Shown here piece by piece: positions 10,814 through 58,908 of a stretch of DNA of 64,000 nucleotides. The position numbers and the translations under genes were made by a program. Each line of letters starts with the position of its first letter. Position 1 is the stretch's first letter. Source of the DNA: an uncultured Chloroflexia bacterium (GTDB lineage: Bacteria; Chloroflexota; Dehalococcoidia; UBA2979); NCBI GenBank assembly GCA_963728205.1, contig CAVSIV010000001.1, positions 1,024,001-1,088,000 of the forward strand, in the 5' to 3' direction. The notes beneath the pieces were generated by a model. The model had not been told where the DNA came from and made no database searches. It was given only the letters and a program-made list of their open reading frames with translations.

Positions 10814-11275
10814 ATGAGCCGCGAGGCGGACCCCGGGGCGGCCGAGGGCGAGACCGAGGATCGCGCCGTCGCCGAGATGGAGACGACCGTCGCGATCGCC
10901 CTGCGCTGGGGTGTGCTTCTGAGCTTCGCGGTGATCCTGCTCGGCAGCGCCTGGCTCTTCGCCTCCGGCGACACCGGTTACGCCGGCGTGTCCGTCTCCG
11001 GCGCCCACGCGGCCGACGCGCTCACCACCTACCACGCGGGCGGCGCGGGACAGTGGTTCCCGACGACCCCGACCGAGGTGATCGCGGGCGTGCGCGCCGG
11101 CCGGCCGTACGCCGTGATCACGCTCGGCGTGCTGGTGCTGATCGCGACGCCGGTGTTTCGGGTCGCCGTGTCGGTGATCACGTTCCTCTGGGAGCGCGAT
11201 CGCATGTACGCGCTGATCACGCTGTACGTGCTGCTGGTGCTGCTCGTGAGCTTCGTGATCGGCAAGGGCGGCTAG
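10814..11275 (+). CDS. DUF1634-like membrane protein
   Basis: LGVLVLIATPVFRV motif; typical partner gene downstream of TSUP exporters. Confidence 0.8.
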   Translation: MSREADPGAAEGETEDRAVAEMETTVAIALRWGVLLSFAVILLGSAWLFASGDTGYAGVSVSGAHAADALTTYHAGGAGQWFPTTPTEVIAGVRAGRPYAVITLGVLVLIATPVFRVAVSVITFLWERDRMYALITLYVLLVLLVSFVIGKGG

Positions 11276-12582
11276 CCCGCGCCGCGCCCCCCACCCCCCG
11301 CGCCTCCGCGCTCCTCCGTCCGCGGTGCGAAGCGCACACGCCGCACCACGGCGCCGCGCGCGTCGAGCACCGTGACCCGCCAGCCATCGACGTCCACGAA
11401 ATCGCCCACCGCCGCTATCCGCCCGAGCTCGGTCATCACCAGCCCGGCCACCGTCGAATACGCCCCGTGCGGCGACGGCAGCTCGACGCCGAGGTCCGGC
11501 AGGTCGTGCACCGGGTAGCGCCCGAGCAGCTCGATGCTCCCGTCGTCGCGTCGCTGTGCCGACACGACGTCGCGGTCGTACTCGTCGAAGATCTCCCCGA
11601 CGAGCTCCTCGACCAGGTCCTCGACCGTCACCATGCCGTCGATGCCGCCGAACTCGTCGGCGACCACCGCCATCTGCTGGTGGGCCGCCTGCATGCGGCG
11701 CAGCGCCTCCAGCACGCGCACGGTCTCGGGGAAGATCGGCGCCTCGCGGACGTGCTCGTGCAGCGGCGAGGCCGGGTCCGCGGCCAGCAGGTCGATCACC
11801 TCCACGATGCCGGCGAGGTGATCGAGATCGCCGTCGGCGACGGGGGCGCGGTGGTGCGCGGCCGCCGCCAGGCGGTCGAGCGCGTCGCGGGTCGTGAGGT
11901 TGCGGTCGAGGAAGAAGACGGCGCGCCGCGGCACGAGCACGTCGCGCAGCGGACGCTCGCCGGCCTCCACGGCGCCGACGATGATCCGCCGCTGCAGGTC
12001 GGTCATCGACGCCTGGCCGGCCGCGAGATGGCGGAACTCCTCGGGCGACATCTCCGTGCGCGGCTGATCCGTGCTGCCGCCGGCGGCGCGCACCACGAGG
12101 TTCGTCGCGACCCCGAGCACCCATACCGCGGGTCGCGTCGCGCGGCCCACGAGCACCAGCGGCCGCACGGCGACCAGCGACCAGCGCTCCGCCCACTGCA
12201 TCGCGAGCCGTTTCGGTGCGAGCTCGCCGACGACGAGCGTGACGAACGTGAGCGCCAGCGTGACGAGCACGACCGCGACCGCGCCGGCCGCGCCGCCGAA
12301 CGCCGGCTCGAGTGTCGACTCCAGCTGTCCCGCCAGCCCGACGGCTGCCGTCGCCGAGGCGAGGAAGCCCGTCAGCGTGATGCCGATCTGCACGGTCGCG
12401 AGGTACTCGTTCGGGTCGCGCGCCAGCCGCGCGACGAGCCGCCCGCGGGCGCCGCGGGCGCGCTCCAGGCGCCGCAGCTGGCCCTCGTTCAGCGAGAGCA
12501 GCGCGATCTCCGAGCCCGAGAACGCGGCGTTGACCAGGATCAGGACCGCGACCACCGCCAGCCGCGCCCAGGCATCGCTCAT
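11272..12582 (-). CDS. HlyC/CorC family (CNNM-CBS-CorC) transporter
   Basis: NAAFSGSEIAL, TVQIGITL, GELAPK, CBS pair with VADEFGG...TVEDLVEELVGEI. Confidence 0.92.
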   Translation of the reverse strand: MSDAWARLAVVAVLILVNAAFSGSEIALLSLNEGQLRRLERARGARGRLVARLARDPNEYLATVQIGITLTGFLASATAAVGLAGQLESTLEPAFGGAAGAVAVVLVTLALTFVTLVVGELAPKRLAMQWAERWSLVAVRPLVLVGRATRPAVWVLGVATNLVVRAAGGSTDQPRTEMSPEEFRHLAAGQASMTDLQRRIIVGAVEAGERPLRDVLVPRRAVFFLDRNLTTRDALDRLAAAAHHRAPVADGDLDHLAGIVEVIDLLAADPASPLHEHVREAPIFPETVRVLEALRRMQAAHQQMAVVADEFGGIDGMVTVEDLVEELVGEIFDEYDRDVVSAQRRDDGSIELLGRYPVHDLPDLGVELPSPHGAYSTVAGLVMTELGRIAAVGDFVDVDGWRVTVLDARGAVVRRVRFAPRTEERGGAGGGGRGAG

Positions 12583-12680
12583 GCGCGCAGGATACGGGTC
12601 GCGCTAGGATTCGGCGGATCCGCCGTCCGGCGGACGCGGCCCGCAGCCGCCCGCGGGCGGCGCGAGCGAGAGGACCCACG

Positions 12681-13538
12681 ATGGCCGTCGACAGCTTCAA
12701 GTACCTCCCGCGCAGCTTCCGCGATGGCTACGACATCCCGTACCAGGCGGACACGCCTGCGTGGGCGCCGCTCGGCGTGCCCGTCGAGCAGGCGACCGTC
12801 GCCCTGATGACGTCGGCCGGCCTCTACCTCAAGGACGAGCAGCCGCCGTTCGACCTCGAGCGTGAGCAGGCGAACCCGCTGTGGGGCGACCCCTCGTACC
12901 GGGTCATCCCGCGCGACGTGCGCCAGGAGCAGATCGGCGCCGCGCACCTGCACCTCAACACGCGCGACTTCTTCGAGGACTTCAACGTCGCCCTCGCCAT
13001 CCGCGCCTTCGACGAGCTGGCCGCCGAGGGACGCATCGGGGCGGTGGCCGACGAGCACTACTCCTTCATGGGCTACCAGGAGCGGTCGCTCGAAGGCTGG
13101 CGCACGCGCTACGCCCCCGAGGTCGCGAAGCGGCTGCGCGACGCCGGCGTCAACGCGCTGGTGCTGGCGCCCGCCTGACCGGACTGCTGCCGGAACGTGC
13201 CCGTGCTGGCACGTCTCATCGAAGAGGCCGGCGTCGCGACCGTGATCGTCACGATGATGCCCGACGTCGCCGAGAAGTTCCGTCTCTCGCGGGTGGTCGG
13301 CGTGCAGTTCCCGTTCGGCCACGCGTTCGGCATGCCGCACGACCGCGCGATGCAGCGCGCGGTCGCCGAGGCGGCGGTGCGGTTGCTCGGTGAGGCGATG
13401 GCCCCGGAGACGCGGCTTGACCTCGACATCGCGTGGCCGGTCGACGACCGGACGGCGTATCGCGACTGGCAGCCGTCGGAGCCGAGTCCAATCGTCGCCT
13501 ACAATGCCGCGCGCCGCGCGAACCCGGACGCGCGGTAG
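12681..13538 (+). CDS. GrdB/PrdB-like selenoprotein (Sec at in-frame UGA 13176-13178; U-P-D-C-C)
   Basis: ORFs 12681-13178 and 13197-13538 are in one frame separated only by TGA; VALMTSAG, GDPSYRVIP, HYSFMG, LAPA-U-PDC...LARLIEEAG match reductase selenoprotein B family; hairpin downstream of UGA. Confidence 0.85.
13195..13214 (+). promoter_or_regulatory. Putative bacterial SECIS hairpin
   Basis: Stem ACGTGCC/GGCACGT with loop CGTGCT (G at loop position 2), starting 16 nt after the UGA. Confidence 0.65.
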
Positions 13539-13593
13539 CCGCAGCGAGCAGGCGTCACCCCCCGGCGGGCGGCAGGCGTCAGTCCTCAGCGGA

Positions 13594-13693
13594 GCGTCAA
13601 AGCGGCGGCAGACATGCCGCCGACAGAAGCGCGGCGCCAGCCGCGGACTGCGTCCGCGTCCTGTCGGCGGCATGTCTGCCGCCGCTTTGACGC
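13594..13693. repeat. REPIN-like palindromic doublet, family A, copy 1
   Basis: 33-bp perfect inverted arms GCGTCAAAGCGGCGGCAGACATGCCGCCGACAG; each arm is itself a hairpin (CGGCGGC-N6-GCCGCCG). Confidence 0.9.
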
Positions 13694-13715
13694 GAGCAGG
13701 CCCTACACTGCCCTC

Positions 13716-13919
13716 GTGCCCACCGACGCCGAGCGCCAGGCCTACCGCGACGCCTTCGACGACTGGCAGCGCAAGCTGCAGGACGTGCACGCCTTCCTCC
13801 TCGACGGGGACCGCCAGGGCAGGCGGCCCGACGAGATCAAGGGCATGCTCAACCGCGAGGCGCGTGCGAAGGCGGCCTACGACGCCGCGCGGCTCCGCCT
13901 GCTCGGCATCGACGAGTAA
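13716..13919 (+). CDS. Small hypothetical helical protein (67 aa)
   Basis: GTG start 6 nt after TACACT; GC3-rich codon usage. Confidence 0.65.
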   Translation: MPTDAERQAYRDAFDDWQRKLQDVHAFLLDGDRQGRRPDEIKGMLNREARAKAAYDAARLRLLGIDE

Positions 13920-13964
13920 GGAACGTTCTTGCGTGCGTCGGCCCCGGGGCCGACGCTGGCTGCG

Positions 13965-14798
13965 ATGACCATCAACCCCGCCACTCCGTCGTCGGCTCCC
14001 GCCGCGCCGCCGCCCCACCCCGACGGCGGCTGGCGGGGCTTCGCGCGACGCGGCTACCCGCGCTCGATCCTGATCGGCGCCGCGTTCGCGGCCGCCTGGT
14101 CGCCGTGCATCGGCCCGATCCTGGGCGTCGTGCTGACGCTCGCGGCTGCCTCCGGCACCGCGGCCCAGGGCGCGCTGCTGCTCGTCTGCTACGGGCTCGG
14201 GCTCGGCGTGTGGTTCCTCGCCATGGGGCTCTTCTTCGGCTGGCTCTCGCCGCGCCTGCGACGTCTCCAGCGCTACATGCAGCCGCTGATGATCGCGAGC
14301 GGCGTCTTCTTCATCGCCATCGGCGGGCTGATGTTCCTCGGCGAGTTCCAGCGCCTGAACAACTACTTCGCGGGCTTCGGCTTCTTCTTCGGCCAGACCG
14401 CATCGACCGAGCAGAGCCTCAGCAGCGGGGTCACGGGGTGGCTCGGTCCGGCGGTGGCGTTCTTCGGCGGCGTGATCTCGTTCCTCTCGCCCTGCGTGCT
14501 GCCGCTCGTCCCGGCGTATCTCGTCAGCATCGCGGGCGAGACGGTGCTCGGCGGCGAGCAGACGACGAGCGCGGAACGGCGTCGCATCGTCCGGCACGCG
14601 GTCGCCTTCGTGATCGGGTTCACCGTCGTGTTCGCCGTGCTCGGCGCGTCGGCGGGATTCGTCGGCGGGCTGATCACGAACCAGCTCGACCTCCTGACGC
14701 GCGTGGGCGGGGTCGTGCTGGTCATCCTCGGCATGCAAATGAGCGGCCTCATCCATTTGCCATACCTGGATCGCACATATTCATTCCAGGTTGATTGA
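13965..14798 (+). CDS. ccdA: Cytochrome c biogenesis CcdA-like protein, circularly permuted
   Basis: Both Cys motifs present (AWSPCIGPIL and SFLSPCVLPL) but in reverse of the canonical order. Confidence 0.88.
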   Translation: MTINPATPSSAPAAPPPHPDGGWRGFARRGYPRSILIGAAFAAAWSPCIGPILGVVLTLAAASGTAAQGALLLVCYGLGLGVWFLAMGLFFGWLSPRLRRLQRYMQPLMIASGVFFIAIGGLMFLGEFQRLNNYFAGFGFFFGQTASTEQSLSSGVTGWLGPAVAFFGGVISFLSPCVLPLVPAYLVSIAGETVLGGEQTTSAERRRIVRHAVAFVIGFTVVFAVLGASAGFVGGLITNQLDLLTRVGGVVLVILGMQMSGLIHLPYLDRTYSFQVD

Positions 14799-24662: not shown

Positions 24663-24757
24663 CGTCAAAGCGGCGCCAGACATGCCGCCGACGCGGCGCG
24701 GACGCAGTCCGCGGCTGGCGTCGCGCTTCTGTCGGCGGCGTATCTGCCGCCGCTTTG
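24663..24757. repeat. REPIN-like doublet, family A, copy 3 (spacer inverted)
   Basis: Arms CAAAGCGGCGCCAGACATGCCGCCGAC / GTCGGCGGCGTATCTGCCGCCGCTTTG; spacer is close to the reverse complement of the copy 1 spacer. Confidence 0.85.
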
Positions 24758-35058: not shown

Positions 35059-35076
35059 CGCCGTGGAGGTCAGCCC

Positions 35077-35707
35077 GTGATCGTCGCGCTCCGCGGCTGC
35101 CTGGCGCACTGGGACGAGCGCGCGTCCACGGTCTGGCTCGACGTCCAGGGCGTGACGTATGAGGTGCTGATCCCCGCGTTCGCCGCCGACTGGGTCTCCG
35201 CGCGCGCCGCGGGCGAGGAGCTGCGGCTCTTCACCTACTACCACGTCTCCGAGCGCAACCCGACCCCCGTCCTGATCGGCTTCCAGCACCAGGTCGAGCG
35301 TGATTTCTTCCGCAAGTTCATCGAGGTGCCGGACGTCGGGCCGACCAAGGCCGTTCGCGCGCTCACGCATCCCGTGCCGGAGATCGCGCGCTGGATCGAG
35401 GCGCAGGACGCGAAGGCGCTGCAGGCGCTGCCCGGCATCGGCGCGCGCCTCTCGCAGACGATCGTCGCCACGCTCAGCGGCAAGCTGCTCCAGGAGGCGC
35501 TGCTGCGGCCGGAGGCCGCGGAGGGCGACGGCCCGGGAGAGGTCGCGCCCGATCTGCGCGAGGACGCCGTCGCGGCGCTCACCTCGCTCCAGTACACCGC
35601 ACGGGAGGCGGATCAGCTCGTGGTCGAGGCGCTGCGTGCGCGCCCCGCGATTCGACTCGCTCGAGGAGCTCCTGCGCGTCGTGCTCGAACAGCAGGCGCC
35701 GGCCTGA
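35077..35707 (+). CDS. ruvA: Holliday junction branch migration protein RuvA; frameshift at ~35650
   Basis: LDVQGVTYEV, HhH motifs VPDVGPTK and LPGIG, DAVAALTSLQY; likely C-terminus DSLEELLRVVL in another frame. Confidence 0.85.
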
Positions 35708-36540
35708 TGCCGCTCCCGCGGCGCGAGCAGTGGCTGCTGTGGACCGGCGCGCTGCTGGCGGTCGCGTTCGTCCTCGTCTTCGGCGCGCTGGGCGTGGGGC
35801 GCGAGTCGGGACTCTGGACCGCGTCCGTGCTGCACGTCCGCGTCGGCGTCTGGGGCGTCGCGGTCACCATCCTGGCCCTCTTCCTCGCGCTGCAGCTCGC
35901 CCTCCAGGGGCGAGGCTCGCTCCAGCGCGAGCGCCGGCTCGTCCAGACCGCGGCGGCGCTGCGCGAGGCCACCGCGCAGCTCGAGCGCCTCGCGACCACG
36001 GATCCGCTCACGACCATGATGAACCGCCGCGCGTTCTTCGATCGCTACGGCGTCGAGTTCCGACGGTCGATGCGCTACGGCCGTCCGCTCGCCCTGGTGA
36101 TGATCGACCTCGACGACTTCAAGGACGTGAACGACCGCTGGGGGCACCCCTTCGGCGACTTCATGTTGGCCGAGCTCGCGCGGGTCGTCACGTCCAACGT
36201 CCGCGAGTCCGACGTCGTCGCCCGCTATGGCGGCGAGGAGTTCGTCCTGCTGCTCCCGGAGACCACGGTGGAAGCGGCGGCGCTGGTCGCCGAGAAGCTG
36301 CGCGCCGCCGTCGACGCCCACGAGTTCCGGTCGGAGGGCTTGCCCCCGCGCGGCCAGCCGGCCGTGCACGTCTCGGTGTCGGCGGGCGTCAGCGCGCTCC
36401 CCAGCGCCACGCCCGTGGACGGCGACGAGCTCATCAGCCGCGCCGATCGGGCGCTCTACCGCGCGAAGCGCTCGGGCAAGAACCAGGTGGTGATCGACGA
36501 CGGTCGCCCCGCGTCGCTCGCCTCGGGGGACGGCGGCTAG
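35707..36540 (+). CDS. Membrane-bound diguanylate cyclase (GGDEF)
   Basis: Two TM segments, DPLT, DLDDFKDVND, I-site RESD, GGEEF; ATG overlaps the ruvA stop. Confidence 0.9.
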   Translation: MPLPRREQWLLWTGALLAVAFVLVFGALGVGRESGLWTASVLHVRVGVWGVAVTILALFLALQLALQGRGSLQRERRLVQTAAALREATAQLERLATTDPLTTMMNRRAFFDRYGVEFRRSMRYGRPLALVMIDLDDFKDVNDRWGHPFGDFMLAELARVVTSNVRESDVVARYGGEEFVLLLPETTVEAAALVAEKLRAAVDAHEFRSEGLPPRGQPAVHVSVSAGVSALPSATPVDGDELISRADRALYRAKRSGKNQVVIDDGRPASLASGDGG

Positions 36541-50574: not shown

Positions 50575-50659
50575 GGGAGGGTCCTTCGGGATTGGGCTTC
50601 GATCCTAGCATCGCGCGAGCGGGCCCACGAGCGGTGCGCGCCCGTAGACTCGACCGGCG

Positions 50660-52087
50660 ATGAAGGCAGTGGGGTACCTCCGCGAGCTCCCGCACGCCTC
50701 CCCGGTCCTTGCCCTGGAGCGGCAGCAGCGCGTCTTCCTGCTCGCCTGTGCCGACGCCGGGCTCGAGGCCGGCCCGGTGTTCACCGACGTCGCGGAGGAG
50801 CCCGGACAGCCGGAGTTCCGGCGCCTGCTGCGCCTCGCCGCCCGCGAGGGGCAGCACGGCTTCACGACGCTCGTCGTGGCCGACGTCGGCGTGCTCGGCG
50901 ACACCGCGCGCGAGCAGTGGCTGCGCGCGCTCCAGGCGGGTGCGCGCGGGCTCGCGCTGCGCCTCGCGATCGGCGGCCGCGCCGTGGGCGTGCGCGACGT
51001 CGACGCGGCGCTCGTCGCGGCCTGGCGGGCGCGGGCCCCGGAGGAGCGCCGCCGCGAGCGCTCGCTCGAGGGCATGCGGCGGCGCGCGCTGCGCGGCGAG
51101 GTGCTCGGCCGGCCGCCGTACGGCTACCGCGTGGTCCGCGTGCCGGCGGCGGAGTCAGGTCCGAGCGGGCCGCGCAGCCGCCTCGCGCCCGACCCGCTCG
51201 AAGCGCCGATCGTCGAGCGGATCTTCGCGCTCTACCTGGAGTCGGGAGAGGGCGTGCGGCGCATCGCAGCGCGCCTCAATGCCGACGGCGTGCGCACGCG
51301 GCGCGGCGCGGCATGGAACGTCGCGACCGTGCGCGCGCTCCTGCGCAACCCGGTGTACACGGGGCTCTACCGCCGGCTCGGCGTCACGATCCCCGGCGCG
51401 CACCGCCCGCTGGTTTCGCGCGCCGACTTCGGCGCCGTGCAACGACGCCTCTCGGCGCGCAGCACGAGCCGCGGCGGTGGACGCCGCCACGACTACCCGC
51501 TGTCCGGCGTCGCGCGCTGCGGCTACTGCGGCTCGCGCCTCGTGGGCCTCAGCCGCGCGTCCGCGGACGGCACGCCGCAACGCTCGTACCGCTGCGGCGC
51601 CGCGCTGAACCAGGGGCGGTGTCGCGCGCGAGCGCGGCGCGCCGACGACCTCGAGGACGAGGTGCTCGGCTCCGTTGCCGCCGGGCCCGAGGTCGCTCCA
51701 CCGCGCGCGCCGCTGCTCCCGCCCGCGCCTCCGCCGGCAGACGCCGGCGAGGAGCCGCGCGCCCGTGCGCTGCGCCGCGAGCTCGACCGGCTGGTCGAGC
51801 GCCACGCGGGCGGCGAGTGGACGCTCGACGACCTCCAGCGCCGCGCCGGCCCGATCGCGCTCGAGCTGCTCGCGCTCGAGGAGCGCGCCACGCAGGTGGC
51901 GCCCGGCGGCGACGCCGCGCGCGCGGGGGACACCGCGGCCCACGGCGTCGCCCACGCCGATGCGCGGCGGCGGCTCGTCGTCGGCTGGACGGACCTCGAC
52001 GAGGCCGAGCGGCGCGCGCTCTTGCTCGAGGTGGTGCGGGAGGTCATCGTGACGGACGACGACGTGCGGGTCGCGCTCGCTCCCTGA
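50660..52087 (+). CDS. Large serine recombinase homologue with degenerate catalytic domain
   Basis: Resolvase-like N-terminus (AVGYLRE), PPYGY, LRNPVYTG recombinase domain, CGYCG...YRC...C Zn ribbon, coiled coil. Confidence 0.85.
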   Translation: MKAVGYLRELPHASPVLALERQQRVFLLACADAGLEAGPVFTDVAEEPGQPEFRRLLRLAAREGQHGFTTLVVADVGVLGDTAREQWLRALQAGARGLALRLAIGGRAVGVRDVDAALVAAWRARAPEERRRERSLEGMRRRALRGEVLGRPPYGYRVVRVPAAESGPSGPRSRLAPDPLEAPIVERIFALYLESGEGVRRIAARLNADGVRTRRGAAWNVATVRALLRNPVYTGLYRRLGVTIPGAHRPLVSRADFGAVQRRLSARSTSRGGGRRHDYPLSGVARCGYCGSRLVGLSRASADGTPQRSYRCGAALNQGRCRARARRADDLEDEVLGSVAAGPEVAPPRAPLLPPAPPPADAGEEPRARALRRELDRLVERHAGGEWTLDDLQRRAGPIALELLALEERATQVAPGGDAARAGDTAAHGVAHADARRRLVVGWTDLDEAERRALLLEVVREVIVTDDDVRVALAP

Positions 52088-52963: not shown

Positions 52964-53352
52964 ACCAGGGGGCCGGGTGGCCGCCGGTTCCGCTTCGCGC
53001 CTCGGCGCGGGCGGGACGGGAGGAAAGTCCGAACTCCACCGGACAGGGTGCCGGCTAACGGCCGGGCGGCGCGAGCCGACGGAAAGTGCCACAGAAACAT
53101 ACCGCCGGGCCGCTCGCGGACCGGCAAGGGTGAAATGGTGCGGCAAGAGCGCACCGGCGTCTCGGAGACGGGGCGGCCGGGCAAACCCCACCCGGAGCAA
53201 GACCAAATAGGGGAGCGCGAAGGGGACGTCCGGCCCTGCTCCCGGGTAGGTCGCTGGAGGCGGCGGGCAACCGTCGTCGTAGATGGATGGCCACCACCGT
53301 GTCGCCGTGGGCTGGCGGCGCGGCACAGAATTCGGCTTACAGGCCCCCTGGT
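52964..53352 (+). ncRNA. rnpB: RNase P RNA (type A)
   Basis: GAGGAAAGTCC, GGAAAGTGCCACAGAAA, GGCAAACCCC, ACAGAATTCGGCTTA; terminal P1 ACCAGGGGGCC/GGCCCCCTGGT. Confidence 0.97.
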
Positions 53353-53457
53353 GCCCAGCGTCCGGCCCCGCAACCGCCGGACTGCCGGCCCGGCAGAAGC
53401 CGGGACGAATGACGGCCCGGCCGAAGCCGCCGGGGAGTGCCGGCGGCTCGGCTCGCG

Positions 53458-57762: not shown

Positions 57763-58518
57763 CTATCCGTGGGTGCCCTGCGCGGCGGAACCCCTCGCCG
57801 CGACCGGGATGCCGGCGGTGGCCGGTTGCGCCGGCGCGGCGCGCGCGGGACGCGTCTCCGGCACCGCCGCGCGCGCGCCCGTCCACCACAGGTGCAGCGC
57901 CGCCGCCTCGACCCAGACGAACGGCGCGGTGATGAAGACGCGCTGGAGGACGCCGCTCCACGGCGCGAGCGCGTGCCAGTGGAACAGCGCGGCGAACACG
58001 ACCGTCACCGCCCCGATCGCGATGGACAGCGCCTGCAGGCGTCGTCGCGCGGCGCCCGGGCGGAAGCGGCGCGACAGCAGCAGCGGCGGCAGCGAGAACA
58101 GCACGTAGCCGTTCGCGAGCATGTCGTGCACGTGGCTGTGCCACGAGGTGAGGCCGAACTGGTCGCGCAGCGCGCACACCGTCGCGGCCTCGGAGCAGTC
58201 GGTGCGGAAGATGCCGGCGGCGATGATGCCGACGCCGACGAGCGCCATGAGGGCCGGGCCGAAGCGCGTGCCGTTCCCCCTGCCGATCGCGCGGAACAGC
58301 CCCACGGCGAAGATCACCGTGCCGACACCGCCGAGGATGAATCCGCCGATCATGAGTGCGGGATTCTGGGCGGTCATCGCGGCCAGCCCGCTGATGTAGT
58401 CGCGCCGGATGTCGTAGCCCGGTTGGAGCAGCCCGGCGAGCACCCACGCGCCCGTCCACGCGAGCGGGGCGAGCGCCCCGCTGACCACTGCCGGACCCCA
58501 GACCGCACGGCGCAGCAC
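57763..58518 (-). CDS. DUF998-like membrane protein
   Basis: PGYDIRRDYISGLAA, GIFRTD, HSHVH, GVLQR; multiple TMs. Confidence 0.8.
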   Translation of the reverse strand: MLRRAVWGPAVVSGALAPLAWTGAWVLAGLLQPGYDIRRDYISGLAAMTAQNPALMIGGFILGGVGTVIFAVGLFRAIGRGNGTRFGPALMALVGVGIIAAGIFRTDCSEAATVCALRDQFGLTSWHSHVHDMLANGYVLFSLPPLLLSRRFRPGAARRRLQALSIAIGAVTVVFAALFHWHALAPWSGVLQRVFITAPFVWVEAAALHLWWTGARAAVPETRPARAAPAQPATAGIPVAARGSAAQGTHG

Positions 58519-58618
58519 AAGACCTCCTCCGGCGCACGGGCGTACGCCAGCACACCGCTTCGCCGCGCAACGAAGCGATCACCACGATTGGGAGGCAGCG
58601 ATGGGACTCTGCCTCCGA

Positions 58619-58730
58619 CGGCCTACGGGGTTAGCTGACGGGTTCGGCGTCGGAAGTCGCCTATGCGCCGAAGCGCAATACACCCCTTGGGATGGTTCCC
58701 CCGTTCCCGGTTTGGCCCGGGACTCGGCCC
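58619..58730 (-). ncRNA. c-di-AMP (ydaO/yuaA) riboswitch
   Basis: Minus strand GCCGAGTCC...CGGGGGAACC...GGGGTG...CCGAACCCGTCAGCTAACCCCGTAGGC; -10 TATCAT at 58755-58760. Confidence 0.9.
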
Positions 58731-58908
58731 GTGAGCGTCGTGCTCACAACTGCCATGATAGCGAATTGCAACGCGGCGCGGGGCGTCCTATCACGGGAAC
58801 GCATCGGGGACGCCCCGCGAATCGACGGAATCTTGCGAAAACGTTACACCGGCCGCACACCCGGCCCGGGCGCGGCCGCCCGGCCGCGCCCGAGGCCGGC
58901 CGTGCGGC

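Follow-up and report, generated by a model that had tools for sequence, protein, structure and literature searches.

A PrdB-like gene with a conserved in-frame UGA codon in an uncultured Chloroflexota bacterium: a predicted selenoprotein without neighbouring reductase partners

The locus and its reading frame

The window analyzed here is a stretch of 64,000 nucleotides (nt) from an uncultured Chloroflexia bacterium (Chloroflexota; Dehalococcoidia; UBA2979), namely positions 1,024,001 to 1,088,000 of contig CAVSIV010000001.1 in assembly GCA_963728205.1. Its subject is a gene at positions 12681 to 13538 of the window that resembles PrdB, the selenium subunit of D-proline reductase, and in which an in-frame UGA codon is predicted to specify selenocysteine (Sec, U). 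Standard calling of open reading frames (ORFs) divides the gene into an ORF of 165 amino acids (aa) that starts at an ATG (12681-13178) and one of 113 aa that starts at a GTG (13197-13538). An earlier note on this DNA had pointed out that the two share one frame and are separated only by the TGA at 13176-13178, and the sequence confirms this. When the TGA is read as U, the result is a protein of 285 aa that contains LAPA-U-PDCCRNVPVLARLIEEAG, the read-through proposed in that note. The following features belong to the gene.

12681..13538, plus strand: complete coding sequence of the PrdB-like selenoprotein, with ATG at 12681, Sec-UGA at 13176-13178 and the stop codon TAG at 13536-13538
12668..12674, plus strand: putative Shine-Dalgarno-like sequence GAGAGGA, 6 nt 5' of the ATG, assigned by eye
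13176..13178, plus strand: in-frame UGA, predicted Sec at residue 166, from TGA conservation and alignment to PrdB residue 151
13185..13190, plus strand: codons of Cys169 (putative resolving Cys of U-x-x-C) and Cys170 (second, subfamily-specific Cys), assigned by alignment
13195..13214, plus strand: candidate selenocysteine insertion sequence (SECIS) hairpin with a 7-bp stem and the 6-nt loop CGUGCU, beginning 16 nt after the UGA

The G+C content of the window is about 73%, and long ORFs occur in every frame. Both stop-to-stop halves of the gene show the composition of real genes of the window, with a G+C content at third codon positions (GC3) of 0.89 and 0.92, respectively. A 725-aa ORF on the minus strand (12579-14756) that overlaps the gene failed the GC3 composition filter.

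Conservation of the UGA codon and of the protein

In a species-level genome collection, 325 candidate stretches were found, 314 of which encode a relative of the protein, and the best 80 were examined. A TGA lies at the homologous codon in 80/80 of these loci and is followed by P-[D/A/S]-C-C, which gives the motif U-P-[D/A/S]-C-C; a pattern search identified it in 78 loci and it was confirmed by reading the sequence in L072 and L076. The loci stem from metagenome-assembled genomes (MAGs) that their depositors labelled under several phyla. Within the window, TGA terminates 15 of the 42 coding-type ORFs and is an ordinary stop, which rules out a reassigned genetic code as the cause.

Read-through proteins could be aligned for 66 of 81 loci (the window and the 80 relatives). 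The remaining 15 were left out because the N-terminal motif was not located (8) or fell on a non-start codon (6), or because the locus extended past its contig end (1). Downstream of the TGA, the alignment of the 66 members has 45 invariant columns, among them P167, C169, C170, E181, R204 and W252. The extra Cys of U-x-x-C-C had been taken for an oddity in the earlier note; it proved to be a signature of the whole subfamily, with C169 and C170 invariant in 66/66 members.

An obvious alternative is that the TGA is a true stop, created by a nonsense mutation, a sequencing error or decay into a pseudogene, or that two proteins are made, one of 165 aa and one of 113 aa from GTG 13197. The output of standard ORF calling would agree with this, as would public protein sets, which list both halves separately, and the window itself reveals no Sec machinery. 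The occurrence of TGA in 80/80 loci from several depositor-labelled phyla makes it very improbable, and so does the coding constraint on either side of the codon. In the 66-protein alignment, pairwise differences at codon positions 1/2/3 amount to.344/.285/.553 upstream of the TGA; downstream, past the hairpin codons, they are.337/.283/.555. The two sides of the protein are under equal purifying selection.

Protein databases carry the trace of the same codon. Among the 120 homologues listed in a word-indexed search, 117 cover only the N-terminal 54-58% of the query and 3 cover 95-96%, which indicates that gene callers halt at the same TGA. Among the 150 representatives listed in a profile search, 35 stop at profile position 165-166 and 9 have their start at 174-177. 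Use of the C-terminal part as query retrieved only 7 proteins (156-499 aa) holding that half, 4 of which show C at the Sec column; as U is printed as C by the tools used, Sec may be among them. In the other three, P0122, P0125 and P0127, the motif reads N-G-P-D-C-C and the N-terminal parts seem to be out of frame; decay of the gene in a lineage that has lost Sec decoding might account for them, as might assembly errors. Judged by these sequences, Sec appears to be close to universal within the U-P-x-C-C subfamily.

A SECIS-like hairpin downstream of the UGA

In the hairpin that follows the UGA, nucleotides 13195-13201 pair with 13208-13214 and enclose the loop 13202-13207, with a minimum free energy (MFE) of -10.5 kcal/mol. 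The UGA is 23 nt away from the apical loop, which starts C-G-U and so has G-U at positions 2-3. The bacterial SECIS (bSECIS) model, as given in the available text of a 2026 review (PMC13188914), comprises a loop of 3-9 nt, an upper stem of 4-16 bp, a UGA-to-loop distance of 16-37 nt with an MFE ≤ -7.5 kcal/mol, and, at loop position 1 or 2, a G that precedes a G or U. The hairpin at 13195-13214 agrees with all four constraints, and the 7-bp stem with G at loop position 2 described in the earlier note is thereby corroborated. Hairpins of 74/75 relatives pass the same energy limit (MFE ≤ -7.5).

The helix is kept across 75 distinct sequences, in which 95.2% of 525 cells are paired compared to 14-59% in slid registers. 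One stem pair occurs as U-A in 48, U-G in 23 and C-G in 3 cases, the C-G cases entailing a change from Val to Ala, and another as C-G in 71 and U-G in 4. The third bases of the four-fold degenerate codons for V173, P174, V175 and L176 are invariant in 75/75 distinct sequences, and third-position differences fall to 0.301 over the first 13 codons past the TGA compared to 0.555 beyond. The GTG at 13197, from which a separate downstream protein would have to start, sits within the conserved hairpin stem, a further point against two proteins.

Over positions 13170-13238, the window and 74 relatives share a stem-loop that is near-identical across MAGs labelled Chloroflexota, Actinomycetota, Proteobacteria, Dormibacterota and Myxococcota. 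Of these sequences, 60 have the loop CGUGCU, 14 have CGUGUU and 1 has CGUGAU. In the review text cited above, bacterial SECIS elements are described as poorly conserved between genes (PMC13188914).

Relationship to PrdB, GrdB and other GRDB-domain proteins

The Pfam family GRDB (PF07355) recognizes residues 11-163 with 33.3 bits at a gathering threshold of 22. Among NCBIfam models, PrdB (TIGR04483) scores best with 127.8 bits, below its equivalog cut-off of 300, and aligns with residues 25-237, straight through residue 166. It is also the best model for 66/66 aligned members, with a best E-value of 1.5e-48. The selenoprotein-B subfamily model (TIGR01918) reaches 40.4 bits, under its cut-off of 65.45, and GrdB (TIGR01917), GrdF (NF040794) and GrdH (NF040795) reach 35.1, 38.6 and 41.8 bits, respectively, with cut-offs of 602, 800 and 775. 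The earlier suggestion that this is probably not a classical Stickland enzyme is in line with scores under both the PrdB and the GrdB cut-offs.

A profile search of 1.84 billion cluster representatives returned 2721 sequences at E ≤ 0.001, 1056 at ≤ 1e-10 and 122 at ≤ 1e-30. A distant alignment combined the window protein, five near relatives and those 74 of the listed representatives that are 200 aa or longer; for the family scan, P0174, an N-terminal fragment, was set aside, which left 73 representatives. Only one of these, P0181 (241 aa), scores above the PrdB cut-off, with 453 bits. In P0181, the counterpart of residue 166 of the window protein is residue 151, and C169 is matched by a Cys. 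Sec151 is the published Sec position of Clostridioides difficile PrdB, where the U151C variant is inactive, according to the available text of PMC11229817. The UGA thus corresponds to the catalytic Sec column of PrdB, which places the residue at the GrdB/PrdB-type UxxC position, as the earlier note had supposed. Its proposal to align the read-through protein with homologues gave a consistent outcome: the 80/80 TGA codons of the close loci are complemented by Cys in 52 of the 73 distant full-length rows outside the subfamily. A Cys at this column in most full-length distant relatives also speaks against a true stop. Position 169 is C in 57/73 distant rows, and position 170 is H in 36, T in 14, N in 10 and S in 4.

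The protein could serve a classical D-proline (or glycine, sarcosine or betaine) reductase as its selenium subunit, with PrdA/GrdE, PrdC or GrdA partners encoded elsewhere in the genome. The PrdB match of the window protein and of all aligned members would favour this assignment, and so would the core it has in common with the true PrdB P0181, which comprises D70, R74, H89, D100, G131, U/C166, C169, E181, G184, R204, P211 and G217. With the PrdB proteins of C. difficile and Clostridium sticklandii (TIGR04483), it further has the Sec column, the U-x-x-C motif, a single-domain organization and a similar size in common. The PrdB score far under 300 and the low selenoprotein-B subfamily score stand against it, as do several differences from P0181. 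The aligned residue of P0181 (printed C, since the tools show U as C) is followed by G-T-C-H, whereas the window protein has U-P-D-C-C, so that C170 corresponds to H. About 24 N-terminal and 45 C-terminal residues lie beyond the PrdB model, and the invariant residues of these terminal segments (D4, S5, W252 and W263) are gapped in most distant rows, including P0181. A quick maximum-likelihood tree of 79 rows unites the 7 subfamily rows in a single clade (Shimodaira-Hasegawa-like approximate likelihood ratio test, SH-aLRT, 98) and places P0181 elsewhere on a long branch (1.74), its exact position being unsure. On the basis of these comparisons, the protein appears to belong to a distinct, almost exclusively Sec-containing GRDB clade marked by U-P-x-C-C, and to be neither a PrdB nor a GrdB equivalog. 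A classical reductase is thus considered unlikely, and the gene neighbourhood described below bears on this point as well.

Compared to GrdB, GrdF and GrdH, the window protein has the GRDB domain in common and is homologous to their C-terminal half (profile positions ~200-430 of ~430 aa). The Sec motif of GrdB is of the same UxxC class, written UxxCxxC in the available text of PMC13188914. In contrast to GrdB, the window protein (285 aa) lacks the N-terminal half, and no GrdA, GrdC, GrdD or GrdE gene is nearby. Cys-type GRDB proteins (C-P-x-C-H/T/N) share its domain and carry the redox motif at the same place; they differ by having Cys instead of Sec, by lacking Cys170 and, mostly, by lacking the N-terminal V-D-S segment. 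The distant Cys-type proteins include other architectures, such as P0145, P0216, P0150, P0171, P0177 and P0178. P0145 carries a fused N-terminal HTH_3 DNA-binding domain, and the Cys-type forms of 380-415 aa constitute a well-supported clade with an extra C-terminal region of ~150 aa without Pfam match.

Weighing the evidence for selenocysteine

Several observations weigh against Sec decoding. When the 66-nt hairpin region was compared with shuffled sequences, the z-score was -0.79 and 45/200 shuffles folded equally well or better; the hairpin by itself is no more than what chance would give at such a G+C content, and it is the conservation that exceeds chance. Rfam gave no match to a SECIS family or to any other relevant one, neither at the gathering threshold nor at E ≤ 10 over positions 13120-13300. 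In the distant alignment, 21/73 rows have no Cys at the Sec column (S 7, G 6, W 3, D 2, E 1, N 1, gap 1), and Gly occupies it in 3/7 near relatives with the C-terminal half, the sequences of which look frameshifted. A Pfam scan of 48 window ORFs uncovered no selA/selB/selD-type domain, a tRNA scan of the 64-kb window no tRNA of any kind, and the flanks of the 80 related loci (up to 8 kb per side) no tRNA-Sec. Use of Sec in the lineage is established by Dehalococcoidia genomes with 46-49 selenoprotein genes, which are reported in the available text of a 2026 database paper (PMC13326102).

The shared frame, the equal constraint on both sides, the conserved UGA at the Sec column of PrdB and the SECIS-like hairpin together make it highly probable that 12681-13538 is one gene, the UGA of which is decoded as Sec through a conserved SECIS element.

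Predicted structure

An AlphaFold2 model built on the 66-sequence alignment consists of a single alpha/beta domain, with a predicted local distance difference test score (pLDDT) of 94.8 and a predicted template modelling score (pTM) of 0.93. A strand at 159-163 precedes Sec166, which opens a helix (167-182) with Cys169 and Cys170 in its first turn, and further strands follow at 186-191, 204-207 and 244-247. In the model, Sec166 thus occupies the usual place of a redox-active C/U-x-x-C. That strands encoded before and after the TGA are predicted to fall in a single domain would be difficult to reconcile with a true stop at this codon.

Among solved structures, sequence searches gave only chance-level matches to phosphotriesterase (E ≥ 0.012). 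A Foldseek comparison with the PDB returned 0 matches at E ≤ 0.001, with a best template modelling score (TM-score) of 0.34, and no thioredoxin-fold protein is among the PDB matches listed. In the structure set searched, the GRDB fold is without experimental anchor.

It is conceivable, if doubtful, that the protein is a general selenol/thiol-disulfide oxidoreductase, which would use U-x-x-C at the N-terminus of a helix on protein or small-molecule disulfides, like thioredoxin-like selenoproteins, without cleaving carbon-heteroatom bonds. The position of U166 right after a strand and at the start of a helix, with C169 and C170 in the first turn, fits this proposal, and so does the failure to find a partner subunit. 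A weak Thioredoxin_9 match (residues 152-185, 18.7 bits) points in the same direction, as does a 2005 survey in which, according to the available text, PrdB was grouped with thiol-dependent redox UXXC selenoproteins (PMC1088965). The match is, however, under the cut-off of 25, so that the protein differs from thioredoxin-fold UxxC selenoproteins in its profile score as well as in the absence of thioredoxin-fold structures from its PDB matches. About 20 invariant polar residues far from the motif (among them D58, E62, D70, R74, H89, H91, D100, Q133, E181 and R204) suggest instead a pocket for a small molecule, and many of them are common to true PrdB.

Gene neighbourhood

The gene is flanked in the window by the following features.

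11272-12603, minus strand: CNNM/CorC-type transporter gene, upstream and divergent, with TauE/SafE and DUF1634 genes farther out
13594-13626 and 13661-13693: perfect inverted repeat of 33 nt with a 34-nt spacer, beginning 55 nt past the selenoprotein stop
13920-14798: DsbD/CcdA-like membrane protein gene, downstream of the selenoprotein gene

An unannotated ORF, a glyoxalase-family gene and a threonine-aldolase-like gene lie farther downstream. Genes of the GrdA/C/D/E or PrdA type were not found among the 48 window ORFs scanned. In addition, the ORFs of 70 aa or more that lie no farther than 5 kb from the gene were all clustered across the 81 loci. When the gene and its own shadow frames are set aside, every neighbour family occurs in at most 24/81 loci. 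The recurrent neighbours that could be identified are CoA-transferase III, enoyl-CoA hydratase, short-chain dehydrogenase/reductase (SDR), FAD-linked oxidase, 2-hydroxyacid dehydrogenase and acyl-CoA dehydrogenase; neither a PrdA/GrdE/GrdA-type partner nor a PrdC/PrdH-type gene is among them. At the level of this neighbourhood the gene is an orphan. The lack of a nearby GrdA/C/D/E or PrdA partner, which the earlier note had remarked on for this locus, accordingly holds for the window ORFs, and no such gene recurs beside the 80 relatives.

These results also concern the classical reductase discussed above. Since only 64 kb of a contig of ~1.28 Mb were covered, partner genes might be located elsewhere, as this assignment would require. 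Against it, no PrdA/GrdE/GrdA-like family was identified among the neighbours, and none of the neighbour families occurs in more than 24/81 loci. The missing PrdA, PrdC and PrdH-type genes are a further difference from PrdB, as is the origin of the relatives, which come mostly from Chloroflexota-labelled MAGs and not from clostridia.

Two candidates for a linked gene were rejected. The DsbD/CcdA-like gene at 13920-14798 is not a conserved neighbour, as the window shares no neighbour cluster with other loci. CoA-transferase III is the commonest neighbour (24/81 loci), and its density of 0.45, 0.64, 0.10 and 0.52 per 10 kb at 0-2, 2-4, 4-6 and 6-8.5 kb is flat with distance and was taken to reflect its background abundance in the genomes concerned.

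A GlcD-like FAD-linked oxidase in 11 loci and a D-2-hydroxyacid dehydrogenase in 8 loci are found almost only within 2 kb. The oxidase lies upstream on the same strand in L015, L020-L022, L032, L033, L035, L036, L038, L039 and L045. In L019, L024 and L026-L029, the dehydrogenase lies directly 3' on the same strand and is followed by CoA-transferase III (~+350 to +1384 from the TGA). Each of these neighbours is confined to loci sharing the local gene order, so that the adjacency looks like inherited synteny and is a lead rather than evidence. Both neighbours act on 2-hydroxy or 2-oxo acids, a possible lead to the function.

Proposed mechanism

If the UGA is decoded as predicted, the hairpin with its loop C-G-U-G-C-U would be bound by SelB with Sec-tRNA(Sec) when a ribosome reaches the UGA, and Sec166 would be inserted. 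By homology with PrdB and GrdB, the selenolate of Sec166 might attack an electrophilic carbon, or a sulfur, of the substrate. Cys169, one helical turn after Sec166, would resolve the adduct and form a selenenyl-sulfide. The Se-S bond could then be re-reduced by an external dithiol donor, possibly relayed through Cys170.

The outcome of the structure searches weighs against this homology-based chemistry, and so does the fact that no counterpart of the pyruvoyl partner PrdA was seen near the window gene. In bona fide proline reductase, the PrdA pyruvoyl group is required, according to the available text of PMC11229817. Given that no pyruvoyl partner is nearby, that the equivalog cut-offs are failed and that the terminal segments are specific to the clade, the substrate is probably neither D-proline nor glycine.

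A tentative proposal, offered as a possibility, is that the protein is a self-sufficient selenoenzyme without a pyruvoyl partner. In place of PrdA, which completes the active site of proline reductase, its own invariant N-terminal (M-x-V-D-S...) and C-terminal segments would do so here, and the enzyme would carry out the reductive cleavage or the redox conversion of a small molecule in uncultured bacteria that are labelled mostly Chloroflexota, and also Acidimicrobiia and Alphaproteobacteria.

Other features of the window

A third copy of the 33-nt repeat arm, with 3 mismatches, is present at 24664-24694, where none is expected by chance. A consensus terminator scan found nothing at the inverted repeat 13594-13693, which may be a REP-like (repetitive extragenic palindromic) repeated element or a terminator without T-run.

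On the plus strand, a stop-free frame at 35059-36540 encodes RuvA_N and HHH_5 domains at residues 8-139 and, at residues 312-476, a GGDEF diguanylate cyclase domain. The genes before it are yebC and ruvC, and the next one is uvrB, not ruvB; the frame represents either a RuvA-GGDEF fusion or a pair of genes that share a frame without intervening stop. A cyclic di-AMP (c-di-AMP) riboswitch at 58605-58739 (minus strand, 84.3 bits) lies upstream of a DUF998 membrane-protein gene (57763-58578, minus strand). A large serine recombinase gene with Recombinase and Zn_ribbon_recom domains (50648-52087, plus strand) is located ~900 nt before the RNase P RNA gene (52965-53355, plus strand) and could mark an integrated element. 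The commonest stop codon in the coding-type ORFs is TAG (24/42, with 15 TGA and 3 TAA), despite the G+C content of ~73%.

Distribution and earlier reports

All 80 loci stem from MAGs. According to a tally of depositor titles, 60 are labelled as Chloroflexota lineages (Dehalococcoidia, Anaerolineae, Tepidiformales and others), 9 as Actinomycetota/Acidimicrobiia, 5 as Proteobacteria, 2 as Dormibacterota and 4 as others. The closest relative among the 80 is a Chloroflexota MAG with 84% identity.

Selenoproteins under the name of proline reductase were described early on, as far as the available text of the respective papers goes. In the Sargasso Sea study of 2005 (PMC1088965), 'Proline reductase (PrdB)' was the third most abundant selenoprotein family, with 42 Sec forms, 1 Cys form and a UXXC motif. 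The Global Ocean Sampling (GOS) study of 2008 (PMC2398784) counted 235 Sec and 110 Cys sequences under pfam07355, and a comparative study of 2006 (PMC1794560) reported 'proline reductase' selenoproteins in Anaeromyxobacter and Geobacter. The Sargasso/GOS family resembles the one described here in UxxC, in pfam07355 and in Sec forms far outnumbering Cys forms, to be compared with TGA in 80/80 loci and hardly any full-length Cys proteins here; the difference is that these surveys, in the text available, treat the family as proline reductase. By name, motif, Pfam assignment and Sec:Cys ratio, the sequences themselves not being compared, the survey family is most probably the same.

Orphan PrdB-type selenoproteins have accordingly been in print since 2005, and the locus is not new in kind. 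The earlier note had called the selenoprotein 'hidden', which is true for ORF callers that ignore read-through of stop codons. It is not true of the family, since PrdB Sec proteins have appeared in surveys since 2005 and relatives already bear the NCBI and JGI names 'glycine/sarcosine/betaine reductase selenoprotein B family protein' or 'D-proline reductase PrdB'.

PrdA is absent from the main text, supplements aside, of PMC1088965, PMC2398784, PMC1794560 and PMC9312934. In the literature searched, 'PrdB-like' retrieves no paper, selenoprotein together with SAR202 likewise none, and 'selenoprotein B' with Dehalococcoidia nothing on this protein; PF07355 is named in the 2026 review only. In this literature, again without supplements, the orphan status of the protein and its distinctness from true PrdB seem not to have been discussed.

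Implications

With regard to annotation, the locus should be entered as one selenoprotein gene instead of two ORFs, and the same correction applies widely. The near-invariant SECIS element offers a simple sequence handle for finding and annotating the family. This family is widespread (314 of the 325 candidate stretches) and apparently Sec-obligate, with no solved structure and no conserved partner. Since it is apparently Sec-obligate and has neither a structural neighbour nor a conserved partner, the name 'proline reductase' is probably a misnomer. If the protein is indeed a self-sufficient selenoenzyme, a selenoprotein family that is among the most abundant in ocean metagenomes would have been misnamed for two decades.

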